Made by a program: the position numbers and the translations under genes. Of a DNA stretch of 31,276 bases, positions 781 to 27,503 are shown piece by piece. The stretch is from a virus. Lineage: Duplodnaviria; Heunggongvirae; Uroviricota; Caudoviricetes. The stretch covers positions 1 to 31,276 of IMG/VR virus record IMGVR_UViG_2534682222_000020. One strand, written 5' to 3'. The notes under the pieces are model-generated. The model was not told the DNA's origin. It saw only the letters and a list, made by a program, of their open reading frames with translations, and made no database searches. How positions within the stretch are numbered: position 1 is the first letter of the stretch; each line of letters begins with the position of its first letter.

Positions 781-1935
781 CTATGATTCGGTTTCTGCAA
801 TCCATTCAGGTATTTTTGCTTCCAGTTCCAGCCGCGTTTTAAATCCACTGCTGTCAATAGTGTGGCTTGCCTTGGCAATTATCCAGTCCTGGCCGTCAAT
901 GACGTCTTTGAATTCCGTTACCGTTCCGTGCATCTCCGGATACAGATCCGCGCGCCCGTAAGCCAGGGTTAAAGTGAACTCAGCTGCTCCTCGCTGGAGT
1001 TGTTGCCATTTTGCAGCTGCTGCACGTTGTGCGGCCATCTCACTGCTGTACGTAGTGCGGAGTACAAAAACGTTACCATCTTCACCGGCAATATAGTCCC
1101 CTTCCCGGCTGCTGCTACGCGGCTTTTTGTCTGCGGTTTTCTTCCGTTTTTTAACAGTGACCTTTTTCTTTTTTCCGAAATCCATATCAAGCCAGTACGC
1201 CTGCACGCCAGTGTATGCGTCACGATCTGCAATCCGGAAAGAATGTCGATCTCCGCTGCTGCGCGTGATGGAAAACTCCGGTAACGCTCTGCCGTTTGCA
1301 CTGACGCCACCACCAGGCAGGATGAACAGCAGGTAACCATTTTTCACAGTTGCAATAGCGCCCAGCATTTCCGCCATGCGCGTCAGAAACGACATGTCAC
1401 TTTCTTGTGTCTGATCTGCATGGTCGATCTCGGCGGACATCAGTTGCTCTGAGATGAGAGGTTTTAACTTGTACCGGTGAGCTATAGCAGAGACGATGCG
1501 CTCAACTGTAACGTCATGCCACGACACCTCCCGTTTGACGTTAAACTCATCGCGGAAATCTGCACTTCTGGCCGTGATCTCGATACGGTCCGGCGGCCCT
1601 GAGTGCGCAATTTCATCCACGATGAAAATCCCTTTGTGAACCAGTTTTTCTCCCTGCCAGCCTATCGCTACTGACAATTCTGCACCACGCGGGGGTAACT
1701 CAATATCTCCCTGGCTATCATCAACAGTGATGGTCAGCTCATCAGCATTAAAGCCCCTGTTATCTGTTAATTCTAATGAGACCAGGTTCCCATCCAGCAT
1801 GATCAACGCCTTGCCGCCAAGCATGACGTTAAACGCAGGTACACGTGACAGGTCGCCCGGATAATTTTTGAATTTCTCAGCACCCGCATTCAGCAGGCTT
1901 TTTGCGCTCTCTATTGCGTCAGTTGTCAGTGCCAT
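781..1935 (-). CDS. D: Tail protein D (late control gene D)
   Basis: ORF 781..2016; likely start ATG 1933..1935 (MALTTDAIE) with GAGGAG RBS. Conserved blocks DNRGF, RSADFR, SWHD, HIDQTQESD..FLTR, SGFKT and a Lys-rich linker, as recalled for P2 gpD. Confidence 0.85.
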   Translation of the reverse strand: MALTTDAIESAKSLLNAGAEKFKNYPGDLSRVPAFNVMLGGKALIMLDGNLVSLELTDNRGFNADELTITVDDSQGDIELPPRGAELSVAIGWQGEKLVHKGIFIVDEIAHSGPPDRIEITARSADFRDEFNVKREVSWHDVTVERIVSAIAHRYKLKPLISEQLMSAEIDHADQTQESDMSFLTRMAEMLGAIATVKNGYLLFILPGGGVSANGRALPEFSITRSSGDRHSFRIADRDAYTGVQAYWLDMDFGKKKKVTVKKRKKTADKKPRSSSREGDYIAGEDGNVFVLRTTYSSEMAAQRAAAAKWQQLQRGAAEFTLTLAYGRADLYPEMHGTVTEFKDVIDGQDWIIAKASHTIDSSGFKTRLELEAKIPEWIAETES

Positions 1936-1993
1936 CGCTTTCTCCTCACGCAAATATTTCCATGCGCGCGCGATAGGACAAACAGCCTTTTGT

Positions 1994-2011
1994 TGTCGCC
2001 TTTCTGTGACA
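1994..2011. promoter_or_regulatory. Candidate Ogr-binding dyad (TGT-N12-ACA) between divergent D and FI
   Basis: Seen: tgtcgcctttctgtgaca. P2-type late promoters carry TGT-N12-ACA centred near -55. A GAATAT -10-like hexamer at 2046..2051 puts the dyad about -55 for FI; an AATATT-like hexamer on the minus strand near 1953..1958 puts it at a similar distance for D. Confidence 0.4.
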
Positions 2012-2086
2012 TCCATCGTGACGTGTCTGCCGCCCGGAATTCAGCGAATATCACCATGAACTCACTAAACATGATGGCGGTAGAGT

Positions 2087-3268
2087 ATGACCGACAACTT
2101 TTTCCACGGATCACGCACCAAAGAAAACACCGACCTTCTGGCCGCGATCAATGACATTGATTCAACGGTCATTGGTCTGGTCGCGGTGGCCGATGATGCC
2201 GATCCCCTCACCTTTCCACTTGATACACCAGTCCTGATCACTCGCGTGATTAGCGTGCTGGGTAAGGCAGGCAAGACAGGCTCACTGTATAAATCTCTCA
2301 AGGCTATTTCCGACCAGGTCAGCACGCGCGTCATTGTTGTTCGTGTCGCTGAGGCCAAAGAGGGTGAAGATGAAAAAACACAATCTCAGCTCATTATCGG
2401 TGGCACTCAGGCTGACGGAAGCTATACCGGTATGTTTGCCCTGCTGACCGCAGAGCAGAAAACGGGTTATCGCCCTCGAATCCTCGGCATTCCGATGTAT
2501 GACACGCAGGAAGTAACCGCACAGCTGCGCGTAATTGCGAAGCAACTGCGTGCGTTCTCTTACAGCTATTGTGATGGCTGCGAGACTATTGCCGAAGCGA
2601 AGACCTACCGCGAGCAGTTCGCCGAACGTGAAGGGATGTTAATTTGGCCTAACTTCATCGCCTACAACCCGCAGACCGGCGTTAATGAAGAATTCCCGGC
2701 TGTTGCCTATGCGCTTGGCCTGCGGGCACTGATTGATAATGAGCAGGGCTGGCACAAATCACTTTCTAACGTTGCGGTGAAAAACGTCCTGGGTATCTCT
2801 AAAGACGTGTTCTGGGCGTTACAGGCGGAGGACTCCGACGCTAATGAGCTGAACGCTAACGAGATTACCACGCTGATCAAACGCGATGGCTTCCGGTTCT
2901 GGGGTAACCGTACCACCGACACCGAAGAGTATATTTTCGAGGTGTTCACCCGGACGGCCCAAATTCTTGCGGACAGCATTGCGGAAGCACAATTCACCAC
3001 CGTGGATAAACCGCTTACCCCGGCTAACGTCAAAGACGTTGTAAGCGGGATCAATGCCAAGCTTCAGGCGCTGGTCACTGCTGGCAAGCTGATTGGTGCA
3101 GCGTGCTGGTTTGATATTGTCGACAACCCGACCACTGGTATTCGCCAGGGTAAAGTTGTTATTCGCTACAACTACAGTCCCGTACCACCGCTGGAAAACC
3201 TGACGCTGATCCAGACGTTTACCGATCAGTATTACGAACCAGCCTTTGCATCGCTGGGAGGTGCATAA
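2087..3268 (+). CDS. FI: Contractile tail sheath protein FI
   Basis: 393 aa; ATG at 2087; RALIDNEQGWHKSLSNV, TTLIKRDGFRFWGNRT, YNYSPVPPLENLTL closely match recalled P2 FI. Confidence 0.9.
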   Translation: MTDNFFHGSRTKENTDLLAAINDIDSTVIGLVAVADDADPLTFPLDTPVLITRVISVLGKAGKTGSLYKSLKAISDQVSTRVIVVRVAEAKEGEDEKTQSQLIIGGTQADGSYTGMFALLTAEQKTGYRPRILGIPMYDTQEVTAQLRVIAKQLRAFSYSYCDGCETIAEAKTYREQFAEREGMLIWPNFIAYNPQTGVNEEFPAVAYALGLRALIDNEQGWHKSLSNVAVKNVLGISKDVFWALQAEDSDANELNANEITTLIKRDGFRFWGNRTTDTEEYIFEVFTRTAQILADSIAEAQFTTVDKPLTPANVKDVVSGINAKLQALVTAGKLIGAACWFDIVDNPTTGIRQGKVVIRYNYSPVPPLENLTLIQTFTDQYYEPAFASLGGA

Positions 3269-3784
3269 ATGGCTATTCCTAAGAAACTCCGCCTGTTCAC
3301 GATGTTTGTCGATGGCGACAACTACATCGGGAAAATACCCAGCGTCACGCTCCCGAAAATCACCCGTAAAACGGAAGATTACCAGGGTGGCGGTATGCTT
3401 GGCTCTGCTGCTGTTGATCTCGGCCTTGATTCAGGTGCACTGGATGCATCAATGATTGTTGGTGGCATGGTCGAGGAGCTGATCCTGAAATGGGGTGGGG
3501 ATATTGACGAACTACGCACGCGCTTTGTCGGTGAGATCTACAGCGGCGGTACAAGCTCCCTGCTTGAGGTCGAGATGCGCGGACGTATTACCGAAGTCGA
3601 CCAGGGCGAAGCCAAGCAAGGTGATGACACCAATCATACTTATGCGCTCAAAAATACGTATTACAAGCTGTCCGTGGATGACAAACCTCTGCTGGAAATC
3701 GACCTGCTGAACTTCATCTACAAGCGCAACGGTAAGAGCCTCTACCCGGATCGCATTGCGTCCGCTCTGGGCCTCGGCCAGTAA
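3269..3784 (+). CDS. FII: Tail tube protein FII
   Basis: 171 aa directly after FI stop (TAA 3266..3268) with GGGAGGTG RBS; size and position as P2 FII. Confidence 0.85.
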   Translation: MAIPKKLRLFTMFVDGDNYIGKIPSVTLPKITRKTEDYQGGGMLGSAAVDLGLDSGALDASMIVGGMVEELILKWGGDIDELRTRFVGEIYSGGTSSLLEVEMRGRITEVDQGEAKQGDDTNHTYALKNTYYKLSVDDKPLLEIDLLNFIYKRNGKSLYPDRIASALGLGQ

Positions 3785-3805
3785 CCTTTTTTAACCACTA
3801 CAAAT

Positions 3806-3824
3806 GGCGGCCAGTCTGGCCGCC
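3806..3824 (+). other. Intercistronic stem-loop between FII and E
   Basis: Seen: GGCGGCCAG-t-CTGGCCGCC, perfect 9-bp inverted repeat; no downstream T-tract. Confidence 0.4.
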
Positions 3825-3837
3825 CGGAGAAAGAATA

Positions 3838-4137
3838 ATGTCAGTAACTCTCAGCCAACCCATTAAACGCGGCGATCAGGAAATCAAATCCGTCTCAATC
3901 ACCGACACAATCAAGCAGGCTGGCTCACTGCGCGGGCTGCGTCTGGTTGATGTTCTCAACTTCGATTATGACGCGGTATCAACTCTGCTGACTCGCGTAA
4001 CCACGCCCCAGCTGACAACTGCCGATATTTCCTCAATGGCGACCGGCGACTTTACGGCCCTGTGCGAAGAAATCACGCCTTTTTTGACGAAAGCGGCGCC
4101 GTCCGCACCGAGCGAGGCGGCAACGGCGAGCAAGTAA
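3838..4137 (+). CDS. E: Tail assembly chaperone E
   Basis: 99 aa; position after tube gene and before tape measure; contains the slippery heptamer near its 3' end. Confidence 0.8.
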   Translation: MSVTLSQPIKRGDQEIKSVSITDTIKQAGSLRGLRLVDVLNFDYDAVSTLLTRVTTPQLTTADISSMATGDFTALCEEITPFLTKAAPSAPSEAATASK

Positions 4138-4310
4138 GAGAGGCAGTATTCAGCGATGTCGACGATCTGATCGCCGATATCGCTGTGATATTTCACTGGC
4201 CGCCCTCCGAAATGCACAGCATGGAGTTGCGCGAGCTGATGGCCTGGCGCGAACGGGCGGCCATCAGAAGCGGCAACCATGATAAGGAGGATGACGACGA
4301 TGGATCTTAG
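3838..4310 (+). CDS. E': E+E' fusion chaperone made by programmed -1 ribosomal frameshift
   Basis: Slippery heptamer T TTT TTG at 4080..4086 in the E frame (cct ttt ttg); the -1 frame continues open as FFDESGAVRTERGG... to a stop at 4308..4310, overlapping the T start. Same arrangement as P2 E/E'. Confidence 0.7.
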
Positions 4311-7239
4311 TATTCGCGTTGCGTTCAGTGCAATTGACAAGCTCACCCGCCCGGTCAGCGCCGCCAGTAAAGCTATTGGCGGCCTTTCCGACTCCCTCAA
4401 AAAAACTCAGTCCTCCATCAAAGACCTGGAAAAAAGCGCAACATCATTTGATAAGTTACGCTCGCAAGCCAATGACACTGCGCAGAAGCTGAAAAGCACC
4501 CAGCGGGCATTTAACGGTCTAAACCAGAAGCAACGTGAAGGCGGCCAGCTTACTGAAGCCCAGACGGCACGGCTTGAGTCACTTCGCACCAGGCTTTCCC
4601 GGCTGACGGAAACCTACGGCAGGCAAACGACGCAGCTGCGCACAGCAGCGCAGGCTGTGCGCCAGCATGGCGTTAATCTCACCACCGGTAGCGGCGCCAT
4701 CCAGAGTGCCATCAGGCGTACGGAACAATACAACCAGGCACTTGAGCGCGAACGTCGTCAGCTGGCTGCTACCCAGAAAGCCCAGGCCAGATACGAACAG
4801 GCAAAAGAGACTGCGGGTAAACTTCGCGGTGCAGGCATGGGGATGATGCTTGGCACTGCTGCTGCGGGCTACGCTGGCGGATCATTCCTTGCGCCTGCGA
4901 TTGGTTTCGACGAGGAAATGTCACGCGTCCAGGCCTTAACCCGCCTTAATAAAGACTCTTCCCAGATGGGAGATCTGCGCGCGCAGGCTAAAAAACTCGG
5001 TGCAGAAACTGCATTCACCTCTCGCGATGCAGCCAGCGGGCAGGCGTTTCTTGCAATGGCTGGCTTTACTCCAGAGGCCATTCAGGCGGCATTGCCCGGC
5101 GTTCTGAATATGGCGCTGGCCGGTGGCATGGATCTTGGTGAAAGTGCCGATATCAGCTCCAACATTCTTTCGCAGTTCCGCCTTGATCCAAAGGAAATGG
5201 ATCGGGTCAGTGATGTTTTGACCGCAGCATTTACCCGTACTAACACCGATTTAATGAACATCGGTGAGGCGATGAAGTATGCAGGAACCGGGATGGCTGG
5301 TCTTGGCGTTGATGTTGAGCGCACAACCGCCATGATCGGTGTAATGGCCAACGTTGGCCTGCGGGGTAGTATTGCAGGTACTGGCCTACAAACCACCTTT
5401 TCACGTCTGGCCGCACCAACAGGCAAGGCTCAGGCAGCCCTGAAAGAATTGGGCGTTTCTGTTGCTGATGCCACCGGAAAAATGCGACCGGCCGAAGTGG
5501 TCTTGTCTGATATTTATAAATCTATCAAAAAGTACGGCGATACAGACCAGCTTTCATTCTTCAAAGATATCGCTGGCGAGGAGGCAGCAAAGTCATTTCA
5601 GGCGCTGGTTAGATCGGCTGGTAGCGGTGAGCTGCAAAAACTCCTTGCCGATTTGCGCGGCTCTCAGGGTGAAGCGCAGAAGGCAGCGAAGGTCATGGCT
5701 GACAACCTCAGCGGTGATCTGAAAAACCTGGACAGCGCATGGGAGGGTTTCCGCATTCAGATTGAGGAGACTGCCGACGGCCCTCTGCGCTCTCTCACTC
5801 AGGGGCTTAGCGATATGATCACCGCCGCCAGTACCTGGGTAAAAGAAAACCCCCGACTGACACAAACAATCATTCTGGTTGTCGGTGGGACACTTGCACT
5901 GGTGGCGGCAATTGGCGCTGCATCACTGGCGATGGGTATTCTTATTGGCCCCCTCGCCAAACTTCAGCTCGGCTTTTCACTGCTGACCGGTGGTCGCGGG
6001 CTACTCGGCACCATTGCAGCTTTTCGCACTCTCGGCACTGTCGCGGGCCCGGCCATGGCAAGTGTCAGAGGATGGTCCGTCGTACTGTCAGGAATCGCCC
6101 CTAACCTGGGAAGAATTTCAGCTATTCTCCCTGCGGTTCGCTCTGGTCTGCTTACTGCATTCCTGTCTCCTGGCGCACTTGTGGGATCGCTGACTAAAAA
6201 CATTGGCATGCTGCTGCTTCGCCTCACTGGCTTACCAGCAATCTGGGGCATGATCACCGGTGCGATATCTGTTCTTGGTGGGGCTTTATCTTTTTTACTC
6301 AGTCCAATAGGCCTGATTGGTGCCGCGTTTGTATCTGCGGGATTGCTAATCTGGCGATACTGGGAACCCATTAAGACATTTTTCCTCGGTATGTTTACCG
6401 GAGTTATGCAGGCGATCTCCCCTCTCAGGGATGCCTTTGCCACCTTTTCCCCCATCTTTGACATGATCAGCAATGGGGTGAAATCCGTCTGGCAGTGGTT
6501 TACAAACCTTTTGTCGCCAATGCAGACCAGCAAAGAGACGCTTGATAAATGCGCGAGCGCTGGCGTGATCTTCGGTAATGTGCTCGGCGGTGCGATTAAT
6601 CTCGTCCTGACCCCAGCCAGGATGCTACTTGATACTCTGGGCTGGATACTTGAAAAACTTGGTGTACTACCTGATGAAGCAGAGAGGGCGCGCAAGAAAA
6701 TTGAGGATGCGCAACGCACTGCCCTCCTTCAGGATAAGGTGGCTTTCCTTGCCGGTGATATGGCTAAAGTCGCCCCCAAAAAAGCAGAGTCGCCAGTTAC
6801 TACTGCTGCACCCGCTGCGGCCTCGCCGCTATCAGGAAATACCGGTACGCAACGACGCCTGCAAAGCATCGCAGACAATACAAAAGCAACCGCTGACAAC
6901 ACCAAGAAAGTCGGGCCGGGTGACATTATTTTCAAAAACCTGCCGCGCGCTCTGGCTTTACGTGGCGCATACCAGGAAGCGCGTGTTACACCGCAGTCAG
7001 TGCCGCGAGTGGCAACGCCCGCCGCTGGCGGCATTATTTCCGCGACAGCAGCCACTCAGGCACCGGTATCGGCCCCCGTTACCGCGCCCACCGGCAATGC
7101 TCCAGTGTTTAACATTACCTTTAACGATGTTGGTAAGCGCACGGATCAGGAGCTGGAAAGAATGGTACGCAATGTTGTGCGTGATGCGATGGCCAGTACC
7201 AACAGAAATAACCGTGGTTCTTTCCGCGACAGAGATTAG
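4300..7239 (+). CDS. T: Tail tape measure protein T
   Basis: ORF 4279..7239; preferred start ATG 4300 with AAGGAGG 9 nt upstream. About 980 aa, coiled-coil N-terminus, long hydrophobic Gly/Ala-rich middle, between E' and U. Confidence 0.85.
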   Translation: MDLSIRVAFSAIDKLTRPVSAASKAIGGLSDSLKKTQSSIKDLEKSATSFDKLRSQANDTAQKLKSTQRAFNGLNQKQREGGQLTEAQTARLESLRTRLSRLTETYGRQTTQLRTAAQAVRQHGVNLTTGSGAIQSAIRRTEQYNQALERERRQLAATQKAQARYEQAKETAGKLRGAGMGMMLGTAAAGYAGGSFLAPAIGFDEEMSRVQALTRLNKDSSQMGDLRAQAKKLGAETAFTSRDAASGQAFLAMAGFTPEAIQAALPGVLNMALAGGMDLGESADISSNILSQFRLDPKEMDRVSDVLTAAFTRTNTDLMNIGEAMKYAGTGMAGLGVDVERTTAMIGVMANVGLRGSIAGTGLQTTFSRLAAPTGKAQAALKELGVSVADATGKMRPAEVVLSDIYKSIKKYGDTDQLSFFKDIAGEEAAKSFQALVRSAGSGELQKLLADLRGSQGEAQKAAKVMADNLSGDLKNLDSAWEGFRIQIEETADGPLRSLTQGLSDMITAASTWVKENPRLTQTIILVVGGTLALVAAIGAASLAMGILIGPLAKLQLGFSLLTGGRGLLGTIAAFRTLGTVAGPAMASVRGWSVVLSGIAPNLGRISAILPAVRSGLLTAFLSPGALVGSLTKNIGMLLLRLTGLPAIWGMITGAISVLGGALSFLLSPIGLIGAAFVSAGLLIWRYWEPIKTFFLGMFTGVMQAISPLRDAFATFSPIFDMISNGVKSVWQWFTNLLSPMQTSKETLDKCASAGVIFGNVLGGAINLVLTPARMLLDTLGWILEKLGVLPDEAERARKKIEDAQRTALLQDKVAFLAGDMAKVAPKKAESPVTTAAPAAASPLSGNTGTQRRLQSIADNTKATADNTKKVGPGDIIFKNLPRALALRGAYQEARVTPQSVPRVATPAAGGIISATAATQAPVSAPVTAPTGNAPVFNITFNDVGKRTDQELERMVRNVVRDAMASTNRNNRGSFRDRD

Positions 7240-7248
7240 GTGACGATT

Positions 7249-7737
7249 ATGATGATGGTTTTTGGAATGTTCGTTTTTATGCTGCGCACCACGCCCTACC
7301 AGCAACTCCAGCACTCGCAGGAGTGGAGGCACGTTAAAAACGAGCGCGTTAACCAGTCAGCAGGCTGGCAGTACATCGGCACTGGTGATGACAACATAAC
7401 CCTTTCAGGTGTTCTTTACCCGGAGATCACGGGGGGAAACCTCTCGCTATCCGCCCTTGAAACTATCGGCTATGCGGGGCGCCCATGGCCGCTTATTGAT
7501 GGTACGGGACGTATTTATGGTATGTACGTTTTAACACGGCTGGAGCGAGGTAAATCCGAATTCGATCAATTTGGGAATCCCAAAAAAATTGAATTTACCC
7601 TCAGCCTGAGCCGTGTCGACGCGGATTACAGGGAGAAGCTGCAAAGCTCGACCGTCAGCGACGCCCTTGCCGGGTTAAAGACGAGTGCAAATAATGCGAT
7701 AAACCAGGTGAAAGACTCGCTCAACGGTCTGTTTTAG
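7249..7737 (+). CDS. U: Tail protein U
   Basis: ORF 7240..7737; ATG run at 7249 (MMMVFGMFVFML) with AGGTGA RBS; WRHVKNERVNQSAGWQY, ITLSGVLYPE, KIEFTLSL match recalled P2 gpU. Confidence 0.8.
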   Translation: MMMVFGMFVFMLRTTPYQQLQHSQEWRHVKNERVNQSAGWQYIGTGDDNITLSGVLYPEITGGNLSLSALETIGYAGRPWPLIDGTGRIYGMYVLTRLERGKSEFDQFGNPKKIEFTLSLSRVDADYREKLQSSTVSDALAGLKTSANNAINQVKDSLNGLF

Positions 7738-7744
7738 CAGTGGC

Positions 7745-8313
7745 TTAAACCCCTTCATGTTCCCTTCTTCTTGAAGGGAACTTCTTGTAAAGCGTCGATA
7801 TTCCGACATCAAAAATAATAGCCACCTGCTGCCGTTTTTCCCCTGCGGCGATCAGCCTTCCCGCCTGTTCCCATTGCTGCTTTGTCAGTTTTGGCCGCCT
7901 CCCGCCTATTCTTCCTTCTGCGCGGGCAGCCGCCAAACCGGCGCGGGTACGCTCAACGATCAATTCTCTCTCCATTTCTGCCAGCGCCCCCATGACGTGA
8001 AAGAAAAAGCGCCCATGGGTGTTGAGGTATCAATGCTGTCTGTCAGGCTGCGGAAGTTAACACCGCGATTGCGTAGCTCTTCGATCATTGTCACCAGGTG
8101 GCGCATGCTCCGCCCAAGACGATCAAGCTTCCAGACAACCAGCGTATCACCCTCCGATAAGGTCCGTAATAAACGCTTAAGCCCCGGCCTTTCCGCTTTA
8201 GTGCCGCTTATTTTGTCTTCAAATATTTGTTCACATCCTGCGCTTACCAGCGCATTTCTTTGCAGCGCAGTGTTCTGGTCATTTGTTGACACCCTTACAT
8301 AGCCGATCAGCAT
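7745..8313 (-). pseudogene. Hin/Gin/Pin-family serine DNA invertase, apparently frameshifted (1-nt deletion) or sequencing error
   Basis: N-terminal ORF 7960..8313 (MLIGYVRVSTNDQ..., active-site Ser) reads correctly to ...STPMG then goes out of frame; the adjacent frame reads GRFFFHVMGALAEMERELIVERT...GISTLYKKF (HTH domain) to a stop at 7745. The break maps to the C-run at 8012..8014. Confidence 0.6.
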
Positions 8314-8420
8314 AAAAATCCCCTTTTATTTAGATGTCATAGTCCCTCGCATTGTATCGAGCATCGTCATTTCTGGCTGTACTGCAGGTCTGGTACCGCA
8401 CCGTCAGAAGTAACCATGTC

Positions 8421-8446
8421 TTCCGGAAAACGTTGGTTTGGGAGAA
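8421..8446. repeat. Left inversion crossover site (gix/hix-like), invertase-proximal
   Basis: Seen: ttccggaaaacgttggtttgggagaa; 22/26 identical to the reverse complement of 10268..10293; AAACC...GGTTT architecture of Gin/Hin sites. Confidence 0.6.
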
Positions 8447-8767
8447 GCGGCGAAAAGGAATGTGGGGACTGGGGCGAATCAGATACCAGACATGTCAGCT
8501 TATTCATCAGGATCTGGCTGGCAAAAATTGCCTGATGGTTCAATTGAACAGTGGGGACGAATTAATTTCCCGACTAACGCCGCGGCGGTATCTACAAATG
8601 TGACTTTCCCCATTCCTTTTACGCAGGAGCCAGACGTAGTGATTGTATATGACGGCGGTTTTGGTGATGGGAATATGTGGGGCGCAACTAACTGGACGCG
8701 AACAGGATTTGTTGCGCATTGTAACTATGGATTTGAAGGTGGAGCTTTCTTTGCGAAAGGGCGTTAA
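8438..8767 (+). CDS. Promoterless alternative tail-fibre C-terminal domain (Sv'-like cassette)
   Basis: Open frame begins inside the left crossover site (...[15 protein letters not shown]...), has no ATG or RBS of its own, and is followed 2 nt later by a tail-fibre assembly gene; would fuse in frame to the H constant region after inversion. Confidence 0.55.
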
Positions 8768-8769
8768 TT

Positions 8770-9210
8770 ATGAAATATTTATATATTGATAATCTGGCGT
8801 ACCCTTACGCCCTACAGTCTGTTTACGCTGCAAAAGGGCAATGGCCAGAAGGAAAAGGCGTAGACATAGACGAAGCTATTTTCAGGGAATATTTCCATGA
8901 CACGCCGCCCGAAGGTAAGCGCAGAATTACCGCAGGCGACGGAATGCCAGCTTGGGCAGATGTTCCTCCACCAACACGTGAAGAACAAATTGCATCAGCC
9001 GAAACTAAAAAGCAGCAATTGATTAACCAGGCCAACGAATACATCAACAGTAAACAATGGCCAGGTAAAGCATCAATTGGTCGTCTGAAAGGTGAGGAAC
9101 TGGTGCAATATAATTTGTGGCTGGATTATCTGGACGCACTGGAACTGGTCGATACTTCCGGTGCGCCAGATATTGAATGGCCTACGCCTCCGGCAGTTCA
9201 GGCCAGATGA
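8770..9210 (+). CDS. Tail-fibre assembly protein, alternate copy (Tfa')
   Basis: 146 aa; ATG 8770 right after the cassette stop; C-terminal ...LVDTSGAPDIEWPTPP resembles the C-terminus of the minus-strand Tfa (...TDTSTAPDVIWPELP). Confidence 0.7.
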   Translation: MKYLYIDNLAYPYALQSVYAAKGQWPEGKGVDIDEAIFREYFHDTPPEGKRRITAGDGMPAWADVPPPTREEQIASAETKKQQLINQANEYINSKQWPGKASIGRLKGEELVQYNLWLDYLDALELVDTSGAPDIEWPTPPAVQAR

Positions 9211-9784
9211 CGTCCGGCGCTGTGCTGGTATCTGTTGCCGTCACCGCGTCAATGTAATCCAGCACAGCGTTAAGTCGGGTGTTTTCTGGCTGCGTCAGCT
9301 TCCGCCCGGCCTGTAATTTCAGTTGAATCAGACTGATGGAAGCCATTGCTGCATTAATCAGTGACTGGCGCTGTGCTTCTGCCGCGTCTAGTGCGGCGCT
9401 ATGCTGTGCCTCGGTATCCGTCACCCATTTCTCACCATCCCATTTATCGTATGGCGTTAATGGGGCGATAGTGGTTGTATTTTCAGGGTAATCACCCGGA
9501 ACTGTGATTTCTTTGGTATCTCCCGTTTCGGTACTATAGACAACTTCACCGCGATGGTCTGGCACATATTCCCATGAATTTAAATCTACAGAGCGACAGA
9601 TTGCATAACCAGCTTTATGTGTACCTGGTGCATCCAGACAGGAACATGCCGGGATACCGACGCCGACAGCGAGATATTCAGTTGATGTAGAAATATATTC
9701 CCGCGTTTCGCCATCATAGTTATGTACGATGATTTCCCCATCATTTAAAGCGTAACCGTCTTTTCCCAAAATAGCCTGTTCCAT
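9182..9784 (-). CDS. G: Tail-fibre assembly protein G (active-orientation copy)
   Basis: 200 aa immediately downstream of H (H stop 9785..9787, ATG 9782..9784); conserved Tfa C-terminal motif. Confidence 0.75.
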   Translation of the reverse strand: MEQAILGKDGYALNDGEIIVHNYDGETREYISTSTEYLAVGVGIPACSCLDAPGTHKAGYAICRSVDLNSWEYVPDHRGEVVYSTETGDTKEITVPGDYPENTTTIAPLTPYDKWDGEKWVTDTEAQHSAALDAAEAQRQSLINAAMASISLIQLKLQAGRKLTQPENTRLNAVLDYIDAVTATDTSTAPDVIWPELPEA

Positions 9785-10888
9785 TTATGCAGCCCTCACA
9801 ATGTAGTTAAATGCAATGTTTCGCGGGCTACCATCACCGGCGCCGGAACTGACATGATTGGTTCTATCCATTCGTTTACTGTCATTTGTTGTTCCACTCC
9901 CATCCTTCCACGAATACAATAACCCGCCATCGCCAATGCTCAACTGCACCGCAAATACGGATGAACCGGATGAATAAACATCTCCAGCCATGAGTGGGTT
10001 CCCTGTCCATCCATGCATTTCATGGTTATGTTCAAGGATAGATGCTGCCTGACTTGAAAGCAGCAGTCTCGCGGAATCAACACCTCGCCCATCATCCCAC
10101 CCGCGAATAAACTCACCGCGCAAATCCGGTAATTTTAACTTTGGGTAAGCCTTTGCCAGTTTTGGGTACTTTTCGGCAGAAAAAGGTGCACCGTTGCATT
10201 TCAGCCAGCCTGTTGGTGGTGTGGCTGAAGGCCACGGAACAGGCACACCAACGGGTAACGCTGAGCCTTCTCCCAAACCAAGGTTTTGGAGAACCTGATT
10301 TACCAGCCCAGCATCAACCATTTCTTTTAATGCATTAGCTATCAGTGGGTATTGCTTGTGCGGATTTGCAGCAGCTACGTGCTTTTTCATCACATCATCG
10401 GCGTATGCCTTAACTTCAATAACGGCATCATCAACATATTTACGGGTTGCCAGCACCACTGACGGATCGATTTTCAGCGTCACAGCCTCGGTGCTGCTGA
10501 CGATCAGGATCACGCGAATAACCTGCACGCGCCCGCTACCTTCCTGCAACTGCGGTTTATAAGTCTCTGCACAGTTGGCAACCGCAATCATATCGCCGTC
10601 TTTATCAAACAGGCCAATCTCACGGATCCACCATCCGCCCGCGTCTTCCGGTATAACCTGTTCCGCAATGATCTGATTGGTGTTTACCGGGTCAACAGTC
10701 AGCATGTTCAGCTGCGCGCGGCGCAGCTCATGCACGAGGGCGGTTTGGGCCGGATTGGGTGTCGGCAGCGCGCCGTTACCATCACCGACGGCCATTTGGG
10801 TGATCTCAACCTGCGCACCCAATGCCGTGGCGTTTGCCAGTTTTGCCGCCCCGATATTGGTTAACAGGGCAAAATATTTAGTCGCCAC
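9785..10888 (-). CDS. H: Tail fibre protein H (constant N-terminus plus variable C-terminus in the invertible segment)
   Basis: ORF 9785..10909; likely GTG start at 10886..10888 (VATKYF... aligning with recalled P2 H MSTKFK...) with GGAG RBS. IGAAKLANAT, QMAVGDGNG, GGWWIREIGL, YVDD match the P2 H N-terminus. Crossover site lies in-frame at 10268..10293. Confidence 0.8.
   Translation of the reverse strand: MATKYFALLTNIGAAKLANATALGAQVEITQMAVGDGNGALPTPNPAQTALVHELRRAQLNMLTVDPVNTNQIIAEQVIPEDAGGWWIREIGLFDKDGDMIAVANCAETYKPQLQEGSGRVQVIRVILIVSSTEAVTLKIDPSVVLATRKYVDDAVIEVKAYADDVMKKHVAAANPHKQYPLIANALKEMVDAGLVNQVLQNLGLGEGSALPVGVPVPWPSATPPTGWLKCNGAPFSAEKYPKLAKAYPKLKLPDLRGEFIRGWDDGRGVDSARLLLSSQAASILEHNHEMHGWTGNPLMAGDVYSSGSSVFAVQLSIGDGGLLYSWKDGSGTTNDSKRMDRTNHVSSGAGDGSPRNIAFNYIVRAA
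10268..10293. repeat. Right inversion crossover site inside the H coding sequence
   Basis: Seen: ttctcccaaaccaaggttttggagaa, internally near-palindromic; encodes VLQNLGLGE in H. Confidence 0.6.
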
Positions 10889-11492
10889 TTGCGATCTCCA
10901 CGGTATCAATTAAATGGACTGCCGCGCCGGTGTAGTCGCCACCGCCCACGGATATGGTTTCAGGAAAATAGGGGTAAACGGTCAACGTATCGCCGATATA
11001 ACACCCCGCTCCGGCTTCGATATACCCCTGCGTCTGAAGCGAAAGCGAAAGGCCGGTAAGGTGGCGGCTTCTGGGTTTCGCGTCATCAATCAGGCGTTCA
11101 AGCTCCTGATATGTTTCCTCGGTTATCCCTTCGTCCTGAATGCCAATTTCAAGCTTGAAAGTGCCGGGCTCCTCGCCGCTCTGCCACCACTCAATCACCC
11201 TCAGCAAATAGCCGAAAGGTTCAACAACGCGCCTCAACGCCGAAATCGTGCCTTTGTGGCGATGGACAAGCCACGAGGCTTTAATTACCTGCCTTTTGGT
11301 CTGTTCAGACCAGCGCTTATCCCAGCGATCAACAGACAACGCCCAGGCCAGATAGGGTAAAAACTCCACGGGGCATTCATCCGGATCCCAGAGCTTTCGA
11401 AGGTCGACAGGAATACCGCTGATCCGCGCCGTCGGTTTCTCCGCATTCCGCATGAAATTGCTGGCTGAAGGCGGCAGGAGGTTGTTATTCAT
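10878..11492 (-). CDS. I: Baseplate assembly protein I
   Basis: 204 aa; LWDPDECPVEFLPYLAWALSVDRWD, VVEPFGYL, RLIDDAKPRSRHL match recalled P2 gpI. Confidence 0.85.
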   Translation of the reverse strand: MNNNLLPPSASNFMRNAEKPTARISGIPVDLRKLWDPDECPVEFLPYLAWALSVDRWDKRWSEQTKRQVIKASWLVHRHKGTISALRRVVEPFGYLLRVIEWWQSGEEPGTFKLEIGIQDEGITEETYQELERLIDDAKPRSRHLTGLSLSLQTQGYIEAGAGCYIGDTLTVYPYFPETISVGGGDYTGAAVHLIDTVEIASGD

Positions 11493-22703: not shown

Positions 22704-23402
22704 TTACACCTGATCAACCTCGCCGAGCGCCACCATAATCGCCAGGCGCTCAGCAGGCGGTAACGCTGCAAATTTTTCCTTCCAGCGCTGCGCCTTTCGC
22801 TTGATTCGATAGCGATCATTGTAATTTTTACCTGCAAAAGTATGCGAATAAGCGCGCCCCTCCTGGTAGTTCATCCAGATCTTCTCTGTCCTCACCCCGC
22901 CGCGCGTCATTGCCTGAAACTCTCGGGCGCGCCAGTCATGTAACATGCGGTCATAAAATCCTGACGGATAGCCCGATAAAATTACGCTGACGTTATCCGG
23001 GAGATCGCGTAAACGCGTCAGCAATCGTTCATGGTCTTTAACAGAATACTCGCACCGATAGCGCGCAGAGCTGCTTCGCGTTTCATGCAGATAAGGCGGA
23101 TCAGCGTAGATCAGCACCCGGCCAGCATAAGAATAATCAAAGCGCTCCAAAAACGTCACCGCGTCACCGACGTCAATAAACAGACTATCGCCCAGAGCAT
23201 CCAGAAATTCATGATTACTCTGGTTAAATGCCTCAATGGTCAGCGGATCAATATCAATCCCCCAACTGACTTTCGCCGGTGGCTTACGTAGCATGACAGC
23301 GCCACCGCCCAAGTGAGTTTCGATGTACGTGTCATGCGGTGGCATCTCGGCAATAATTTTTTGATAAACACCGCTCGCCGCTTTGCTTCCCAGATAGCTC
23401 AT
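22704..23402 (-). CDS. Orphan Dam-class (D12) N6-adenine DNA methyltransferase, short form, in cos-proximal cargo position
   Basis: ORF 22704..23438; preferred ATG 23400..23402 (MSYLGSKAA); motifs YLGSK, THLGGGAV (SAM binding), DPPY (catalytic). No adjacent restriction endonuclease candidate. Confidence 0.7.
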   Translation of the reverse strand: MSYLGSKAASGVYQKIIAEMPPHDTYIETHLGGGAVMLRKPPAKVSWGIDIDPLTIEAFNQSNHEFLDALGDSLFIDVGDAVTFLERFDYSYAGRVLIYADPPYLHETRSSSARYRCEYSVKDHERLLTRLRDLPDNVSVILSGYPSGFYDRMLHDWRAREFQAMTRGGVRTEKIWMNYQEGRAYSHTFAGKNYNDRYRIKRKAQRWKEKFAALPPAERLAIMVALGEVDQV

Positions 23403-23514
23403 AACTTTCTCGTTCCCAAAAAAACCAACCTGCAGCACCGCCTAAAATGACGTTGCTCGATAGAATGGCCAGAACCGTCAAAAGCGACCATGGCTGACCA
23501 TCTCACTCACTGCT

Positions 23515-26335: not shown

Positions 26336-26538
26336 CGGGTGGCGACCTCCCGAATCTCTTCGATTGAGTCAAGCAGCAGTCGACGGCGGGTATGTTCGGC
26401 AAAGTGACGTTTGCCGGTGTCTTTCCGGTAGCACTCTGTCTTGCCGACTACCCACATGGATTCCGTCTGGTGCAACTTCTTGCGCTGCGGGCCGTCTTTG
26501 GTAATAACGATGCCCGTATGAGTCTTTTTAATGGTCAT
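26332..26538 (-). CDS. Small hypothetical early protein (68 aa)
   Basis: ORF begins at the Dam stop and ends in the ATGA overlap with the next small ORF; basic; no recognised motif. Confidence 0.45.
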   Translation of the reverse strand: MTIKKTHTGIVITKDGPQRKKLHQTESMWVVGKTECYRKDTGKRHFAEHTRRRLLLDSIEEIREVATR

Positions 26539-27503
26539 CAGAAAGGCTCCTGCGTTTCACAGCCCTTGGCAGGGTCGAAGCCTAAAAACATCTCGCCGTA
26601 AGTCGCATTCCCCATTACCGGCCCACAATCCGGGCAGCAACCACCGCCAGCACGATCGCAGCCATCACACACGCGAAGAACGCCAATAACCTCGCCAGCC
26701 ATATCGCGGCTTTTGGCGCTCACAGAGCGGCGGACACTCAGGGAGTGAAGGTTGAAGGCGGAATAAATTTCGCGAGTTTCAGGCGTGTCGCTGTTTGAGA
26801 TGATCGAGCGGGTGGCGTACTGACGGTTAACAGCCACAAGAGCCGCTACCAGAGCGCGATGATCAACCAGGGTAAAGGGTTTGCCGTAAGCGGTGAAATT
26901 GGCGGTATCGCTCGCAGGAATATAGGGCGGGTCACAATAAATCACCGCGTCATGCGCGAGTTGCATAACGTCAGGGATAGATTGGCGGAAATCACTATGG
27001 ATAAAGACCGCTTTTGTGTCGCTGGCCTTTTCGGCGAATAAGCGCATTTCCGCTTCAGGAAAGTAAGGCTCGGCATACTTACCGAATGGAACGTTGAATT
27101 CGCCCTTCTGGTTAACGCGATACAGACCGTTATAGCCATGGCGATTCAGATACAGGAAATACGCGGCATAAAGCATTGCTGCGTCCGGATCAGAGTCAGC
27201 CTGGCGGGCCAGTGAATTGAACTCTGTGCGCCGTCTGTAGTATTCCTCCGCACTGTTTCCGCCTTTGAAAGCCCAGCGGCAGGCGGCAATAGCGTCTTCT
27301 TTGCGGCCGGTTAATTGTCGGAAAAAATTAATCAGTGCGATATTGCTGTCGCAGAGAACGTAGCGGCGGTAATCCGTGTTCATAAACACAGTTCCACTAC
27401 CCACAAACGGCTCAATCAGACAATCCGCTTTCGGCAAATGCTTAAGCAGCTGCGGCATAACGCGGGTTTTTCCTCCCGCCCATTTGATTGGCGATCTGAT
27501 CAT
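26538..27503 (-). CDS. dam: Dam-family DNA adenine methyltransferase with Cys-rich C-terminal extension
   Basis: 321 aa; PIKWAGGK, EPFVGSGTV, LYLNRHGYNGLYRVN, FNVPFG, YCDPPY align with recalled E. coli Dam along its length; about 45 extra C-terminal residues with CDGC...CCPDC; ATG 27501..27503 overlaps the upstream stop. Confidence 0.85.
   Translation of the reverse strand: MIRSPIKWAGGKTRVMPQLLKHLPKADCLIEPFVGSGTVFMNTDYRRYVLCDSNIALINFFRQLTGRKEDAIAACRWAFKGGNSAEEYYRRRTEFNSLARQADSDPDAAMLYAAYFLYLNRHGYNGLYRVNQKGEFNVPFGKYAEPYFPEAEMRLFAEKASDTKAVFIHSDFRQSIPDVMQLAHDAVIYCDPPYIPASDTANFTAYGKPFTLVDHRALVAALVAVNRQYATRSIISNSDTPETREIYSAFNLHSLSVRRSVSAKSRDMAGEVIGVLRVCDGCDRAGGGCCPDCGPVMGNATYGEMFLGFDPAKGCETQEPF

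Follow-up and report, generated by a model that had tools for sequence, protein, structure and literature searches.

Switching of tail fibres by DNA invertases has been textbook knowledge since phages Mu and P1 and the element e14, and related systems include Fin of Salmonella Fels-2 and carotovoricin Er. The Gin, Cin, Pin, Hin and Fin invertases cross-complement. Canonical P2 is not known to carry such an invertible segment. In P2-like prophages the switch has been shown experimentally: in enteropathogenic Escherichia coli (EPEC) E2348/69, inversions of about 1.8-2.2 kb in two such prophages were verified by sequencing and polymerase chain reaction (Goldberg et al. 2014, PMC4272514). DNA invertases are frequent beside the tail-fibre genes of P2-like phages (bioRxiv 10.1101/2024.10.15.618418), and a survey found the annotations "tail fiber protein", "tail fiber assembly protein" and "phage tail protein I" to be enriched at programmed inversions (PMC9881135). 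In this work, we describe a cassette of this kind within the tail-fibre gene H of a 31,276-nt stretch of viral DNA (IMG/VR record IMGVR_UViG_2534682222_000020), which is, by its gene content, apparently a complete P2-like (Peduoviridae) prophage; the whole stretch is referred to as the window, and all coordinates follow its numbering. The mechanism as such adds nothing new. The cassette is probably a Pin-type invertible host-range switch whose cis-acting elements still work while its own enzyme is dead, flipped, and possibly swapped, by the invertases of co-resident prophages, and locked where there is none. The biological point is a modest one: a lineage with a dead invertase still shows both orientations, together with a heavy turnover of cassettes bounded by the crossover sites.

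The closest known relative of the window cassette is the e14 P segment with its invertase PinE. The e14 segment is reported to be 1,797 bp long, against 1,849 bp here, measured from core to core (8433..10281); the inner half-sites TTCTCCCAAACC are identical, and the published inverted repeat TTGGTTTGGGAGAAGG (16 nt) is matched at 15 of 16 positions by the window repeat TTGGTTTGGGAGAAG. The layout is also alike: an stf C-terminus and tfa are followed by tfa' and an stf' C-terminus, converging on the first pair. At the protein level, identity is 86.5% for TfaE, 85.6% for PinE, once the frameshift in the window invertase is repaired, 69% for TfaP, over the C-terminal half of the silent chaperone, and about 50% for StfE, compared with the collar-type C-terminus of H. 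The two differ in their setting, e14 being defective, with an intact pinE and the remnant of a Mu-like or lambdoid tail, whereas here the invertase is frameshifted, the cassette sits on the P2-type H N-terminus of an apparently complete prophage, and the silent module is gp53-like, not StfP-like.

With the Mu G segment and Gin, and the P1 C segment and Cin, the locus shares a constant fibre part (Sc) followed by Sv-U and U'-S'v in opposed orientations, 26-bp sites and an enhancer, here putative, in the 5' end of the invertase gene. Moreover, gix in Mu S encodes IQNLGLQE, in which the QNLGL motif is shared, in the same frame, with the crossover site in H. The G and C segments, of 3 and 4.2 kb, have much longer variable parts, however, and the variable fibre domains of the window show no detectable similarity to Mu S or S'; between Tfa' and U' there is a weak match only (29% over 73 amino acids). 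A preliminary description of this DNA, made from its letters, had assigned the locus to the Mu G / P1 C architecture and proposed aligning the fibre C-termini and chaperones with their Mu counterparts. Layout and type of site are indeed shared, but the nearest relative is the e14 P segment, and the weak Tfa' match is all that the alignment with Mu returns. The novelty implied by the contrast it drew with canonical P2 is small, since inversion in P2-like prophages is already on record (PMC4272514). The E2348/69 systems resemble the locus, as far as their description goes, in combining an invertase with inverted repeats that yield alternative tail-fibre C-termini; they differ in that one locus has three repeats and four variants, against two sites here, and in that the EPEC invertases work.

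Two 26-bp crossover sites bound the cassette. Site 1, proximal to the invertase, lies at 8421..8446, reads TTCCGGAAAACGTTGGTTTGGGAGAA and has its core TT at 8433-8434; site 2, inside H, lies at 10268..10293, reads TTCTCCCAAACCAAGGTTTTGGAGAA (reverse complement TTCTCCAAAACCTTGGTTTGGGAGAA) and has its core AA at 10280-10281. Both are imperfect 12-2-12 palindromes with opposed central dinucleotides, TT and AA, so that the two sites face each other. Alignment confirms the coordinates and counts given in the preliminary description: the sites are inverted copies, identical at 22 of 26 positions, with mismatches at positions 4, 5, 6 and 12 and the final 14 nt identical. In a repeat search, the same pair ranked first among the inverted repeats of the region (21 nt, 95% complementary, arms 1,819 nt apart). 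A chance origin of the pair is unlikely: at least 22 matches in 26 have a probability of 2.9e-10 per position, so that 1.8e-5 matches to site 2 are expected over the whole window; inverted 21-mers matching at 20/21 are expected about 0.007 times anywhere in it; and no shuffled sequence matched site 2, even at 3 mismatches.

By their sequence, the two are crossover sites of the Hin/Gin/Cin/Pin type. Compared with site 2, the defined e14 crossover sites agree at 24/26 and 22/26 positions, cixR of P1 at 22/26 and Mu gix at 20/26; for the P1 crossover sites set against the window sites, the figures are 22/26 and 20/26. The inner half-site of site 1, GGTTTGGGAGAA, has the same letters as the e14 inner half-sites, and the homology between the flanks of sister prophages ends at site 1. 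A half-site weight matrix scores the two sites at 36.9 and 27.9, and the next-best position in the window at 10.4; having been built from the window, e14, Mu and P1 sites, and thus including those it scores, it mainly shows that there is no third site. A third crossover site in the window, or a pair around the FI-U tail block described below, was considered and discarded, the scan having returned these two sites only.

Between the sites lie two convergent modules. In its current form H (9785..10888, minus strand, from GTG at 10888 to TAA at 9785) encodes 367 amino acids, with matches to PF12571 (Phage_tail_fib, 4e-64) and PF07484 (Collar, 2e-14). The constant N-terminus (10282-10888, minus strand) corresponds to the P2-type fibre domain PF12571, and the variable collar-type C-terminus, Hv, to 9785-10267 on the same strand. 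It is followed by the tail-fibre assembly gene of the current orientation, which is TfaE-like (9182..9784, minus strand, 200 amino acids; PF02413, 6e-31; phrog_105). The silent module is on the plus strand and comprises a gp53-like alternative C-terminus of 106 amino acids, H'v (8447..8767; PF21882, Gp53-like_C, 4e-10), which has no start codon of its own, its frame beginning directly at site 1, and an alternative assembly gene, Tfa' (8770..9210, 146 amino acids; PF02413, 5e-30), which shares 29 nt with the 3' end of tfa, on the other strand. A comparison with NCBIfam named none of the fibre or chaperone proteins.

Site 2 is in frame within H, where the minus strand encodes LQNLGLGE, and inversion in silico at the core dinucleotides joins H'v to the constant part of H in frame, producing an open H' of 313 amino acids that reads QNLGLGE-AAKRNVGTG across the junction. 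The two C-termini are different folds, Collar (PF07484) and Gp53-like_C (PF21882), each with its own Caudo_TAP chaperone, and the two orientations would, judging only from these folds, differ in adsorption and host range. The preliminary description had placed one site in frame inside H, the other at the head of a start-less frame destined to become an alternative H C-terminus on inversion, and one assembly gene in each orientation; all of this stands. The fused frame, for which it had raised the question of stops, is open, as are the natural fusions found in three sister prophages (L003, L010 and L013). Its view of the alternative frame as promoterless is weakly supported: no promoter-like site was found upstream of H'v, in a promoter and terminator scan of 7600-11000 that performed no better than on shuffled sequences and is weak evidence. 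For annotation purposes, H'v and Tfa' are not independent genes, and the invertase beside them is a pseudogene.

This invertase, a serine DNA invertase of the Pin/Gin family, lies between gene U and site 1 (7745..8313, minus strand). The structural claims of the preliminary description all hold, but it called the locus a switch and made no mention of this adjacent gene, which is frameshifted; the switch is therefore not self-sufficient here. A 1-nt deletion splits the gene into two open reading frames (ORFs), one of 117 amino acids with the catalytic domain (7960-8313) and one of 82 amino acids with the remnant of helix E and the helix-turn-helix (7745-7993). The deletion falls in a G run, the plus strand reading CCC at 8012-8014, against CCCC in L004, L001, L005, L006, Mu gin and pinE, and it truncates the protein beyond residue 101, ahead of both helix E and the DNA-binding domain; apart from it, both partial ORFs are undamaged. 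PF00239 and PF02796 are found across the two halves, which belong to phrog_125 (DNA invertase). When the missing base is restored, the resulting protein of 189 amino acids is 78% identical to Mu Gin, matches the Gin crystal structure PDB 3UJ3 (E=5e-95, residues 1-185) and carries the VRVS motif with Ser-9. Residues unique to the invertases that depend on Fis and an enhancer have been listed for Hin as K47, R48, K51, Q151, R154 and L155 (PMC3798978); in the repaired protein, alignment places K46, R47, R50, Q150, R153 and L154 at these positions, numbered as in Hin minus 1.

The frameshift in the invertase is genuine and occurs widely. In a public assembly collection, exactly this truncated ORF is indexed in 356 blocks, and it was read in 24 contigs; its recurrence across independent Logan, ENA and NCBI assemblies rules out an assembly error. 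The same allele is present in the RefSeq genome of E. coli PCP06171, where the Prokaryotic Genome Annotation Pipeline (PGAP) also calls a frameshift. A programmed -1 frameshift at AUG-GGC would restore the wild-type protein, but is unlikely, as we infer from the lack of a slippery heptamer or a long homopolymer.

The 5' end of the gene contains a putative Fis-dependent recombinational enhancer (8224..8295, minus strand, nt 19-90 of the gene), proposed on homology only. In the GenBank record of P1, cin nt 19-90 are annotated as the Cin enhancer, and window 8295-8224 aligns with it, ungapped, at 56 of 72 positions, and with the same stretch of Mu gin at 60 of 72; the conserved terminal 15-mers are GTGTCAACAAATGAC and GCGCAGGATGTGAAC. 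The putative enhancer is intact because it lies upstream of the frameshift, and the switch is predicted to depend on Fis. A strict scan of the window for pairs of G-N13-C Fis-like 15-mers 48 bp apart found none. At the other end of the gene, where the U stop (7737) and the invertase 3' end (7745) meet, a hairpin with a 9-bp stem and a T-rich tail (7759-7781) is a plausible terminator for the converging transcripts.

When isolates are compared with each other, both orientations are seen to occur in nature within one prophage lineage. E. coli PCP06171 (L003) harbours this prophage too, dead invertase included; the flanks there are 99.89% identical to the window, this identity ending exactly at 8447 and 10267, and the segment has the opposite orientation. 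Its left junction matches the predicted product of inversion exactly, and the frame of H continues into a gp53-like C-terminus. At L003 11229-12209, the RefSeq/PGAP annotation gives H as "incomplete, missing C-terminus", together with a separate gp53-like coding sequence, although the fused frame is open from GTG 12209; this split appears to be an artefact of annotating the inverted state, in which H is mis-called as a pseudogene.

Ten contigs were retrieved by means of the truncated invertase ORF, all with flanks 99.7-100% identical to the window, one of them (L019) being identical to it over 8,354 nt. Six of them (L011, L014-L017 and L019) have H joined to the collar type and two (L010 and L013) to the gp53 type, while the remaining two (L012 and L018) are shorter variants that have lost the inner half-sites. 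In L003, L010 and L013, the H-gp53 fusions are open, the segment junctions fall exactly at the sites, and the flanks are 99.7-99.95% identical. L013 and L014 contain the same 1,895-nt cassette in opposite orientations, with 26 mismatches, and their flanks show differences at 4/4473 and 1/1986 positions. The pair represents a clean inversion in nature, from one site to the other, in a lineage whose invertase is dead. Most of the differences in this pair (20 of the 26) fall within one patch of about 110 nt, at cassette positions of about 1523-1630, which suggests a short gene-conversion tract. In the two shorter variants, outer half-sites and cores are kept, the inner halves are unrelated, and inserts of 720 and 1,052 nt hold a single fibre module each; L012 still encodes the LGL motif, with changed codons. 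Both look like locked or replaced versions.

Over a larger sample, a census of 5,426 E. coli genomes, the gp53-type module adjoins an invertase in 21 and the collar-type module in 414; the census mixes many lineages, and it shows that both arrangements are common, not being used here as proof of flipping. An exact-pattern scan for the invertase-proximal junction gave 0 matches in genome contigs. The same pattern was met in two metagenome contigs with intact invertases and diverged cassettes, which are of no help on orientation. The metagenome contig OIHO01000001.1 (L006) may have two invertases at one locus: some 1.7 kb away from its first invertase gene there is another invertase-like match, with 76% identity to window 8113-8313 (matches at 5990-6190 and 7793-8337).

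In the mechanism that we propose, the late V-W-J-I-H operon, on the minus strand, would read through the crossover site inside H. The current orientation would yield an H with a collar-type receptor-binding C-terminus, along with the TfaE-like chaperone, the gp53-like module facing the wrong way and remaining silent. Both 26-bp sites would be cleaved at the central TT/AA by a serine invertase, aided by the Fis-bound enhancer in the 5' end of the invertase gene, and the 1,849-bp flip would bring the alternative C-terminus into frame with H and exchange one chaperone for the other, with a change in the specificity of adsorption. As the own invertase is inactivated and the cis elements are intact, flipping would have to depend on an invertase supplied in trans, probably a related enzyme from another resident prophage (PinE, PinQ or PinR), and the segment would be locked wherever no such enzyme is present.

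The most parsimonious explanation is that resident Pin-type invertases flip the segment in trans. PinE is reported to invert the e14 repeat in cis, and PinQ of prophage Qin to do so in trans (PMC12529663). Together with the Hin/Fin and Gin/Cin/Pin cases, PinQ acting on e14 is a precedent for flipping by an invertase encoded elsewhere, with the difference that in those systems the segment's own invertase is functional as well, and here it is not. A P2-like prophage with the sites and no invertase (L002) is found in E. coli EC09 together with an e14-like element with an intact invertase (H93), and PCP06171, the isolate with the inverted segment, has an intact pinR in its Rac remnant. Some observations weigh against flipping in trans. 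PCP06171 has neither e14 at icd nor the tRNA-Pro element, pinR being the only invertase source found, and PinQ, which is reported to share 99% identity with PinR, shares just 38% with PinE (PMC12529663). Furthermore, most sister loci have different cassette alleles, at 82-93% identity, and many orientation differences could therefore reflect replacement of the cassette, not simple flipping.

A possible case of replacement from outside the lineage is the window cassette itself: it is 99.7% identical (three mismatches from 8427 to 10286) to the one that an e14-like element carries in E. coli ST536 (L001), and much closer to it than to the cassettes of its own sister prophages. The L001 element is an e14-like prophage remnant with a Mu-type tail, located at tRNA-Pro, in which positions 6001-7869 (NZ_CM174221.1) match window 8427-10295 and the cassette adjoins an intact invertase of 186 amino acids. 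The identity starts and stops inside the outer half-sites of both 26-bp sites, and the flanks are unrelated.

These data count in favour of the main rival explanation, according to which the cassette is a frozen relic: there would have been no flipping since the death of the invertase, and the sister variants would have arisen by wholesale replacement of the cassette, importing the orientation of the donor. Besides the near-identity with an unrelated e14-like element, the frameshift, the divergence of most sister alleles and the loss of inner half-sites and of one module in L012 and L018 all fit such a history. We consider it unlikely, in view of the L013/L014 pair, in which the same allele is cleanly inverted between near-identical flanks, and of the two sites and the enhancer, which are still intact. 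Moreover, donors such as L001 have no flank homology beyond the 26-bp sites, which makes ordinary homologous replacement hard to picture; exchange at the sites would itself imply invertase activity.

At the opposite extreme, the switch could be fully autonomous, its own invertase being made because the frameshift is a sequencing artefact or is bypassed, for instance by a -1 ribosomal shift at AUG-GGC. It is true that the deletion reduces a short run of G from GGGG to GGG, that neither partial ORF has any other damage, and that the lineage flips in nature; but the recurrence of the truncated ORF in the 356 blocks and in the 24 contigs from independent assemblies, its identity in PCP06171 and the lack of a slippery heptamer or long homopolymer at the deletion make this highly improbable, and a lineage with flanks at least 99.7% identical is too young for the absence of further decay to count. 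Least credible of all is that the inversion mainly serves the bacterium, for example through a chimeric fibre fragment that blocks the adsorption of other phages, like StfE2 of e14. The homologous e14 P segment has been reported to act in this way under PinQ control (PMC12529663), whereas in the window H belongs to an intact P2-type late operon of an apparently complete prophage (capsid, terminase, tail, lysis, replication, integrase), and both products are full-length fibres with the baseplate-attachment domain of the P2 H N-terminus. A Pin-type cassette flipped by the enzymes of co-resident prophages thus remains the reading that we prefer.

The rest of the window is of P2 type as well, with ogr, D, sheath, tube, tape measure, U and I/J/W/V (V being the spike), a P2-family capsid, terminase, replication protein A (GPA), a Dam-type methylase, integrase and lysis genes. 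D (781-2016) is on the minus strand, while FI (2087-3268), FII, E, T (4279-7239) and U (7240-7737) are on the plus strand. The sheath-tube-tape-measure-U block, in the 781-7737 region, is therefore on the strand opposite to D/ogr and V-W-J-I-H, whereas in P2 the FI-U genes are co-directional with both. This orientation is a trait of the lineage, the same layout being found in the related prophages L002 and L004, and no crossover-like site flanking the block was found in the window. On either side of the replication gene A lies a minus-strand ORF that resembles adenine methyltransferases of the D12 class; the match is weak and partial for one (22704-23438, 8e-5) and strong for the other (26538-27503, 2e-57).

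It is possible, and we advance it tentatively, that the invertases of other prophages do more than flip a switch that has lost its own enzyme and kept its sites and enhancer, and that they also recombine crossover sites between unrelated prophages. Near-identical backbones with many different cassettes, and breakpoints inside the sites, would then be the outcome of such site recombination. If this is true, the crossover sites would be portable docking points for the exchange of host-range modules between phage families. If confirmed, it would also mean that the host range of a prophage depends on the invertase repertoire of its host cell.

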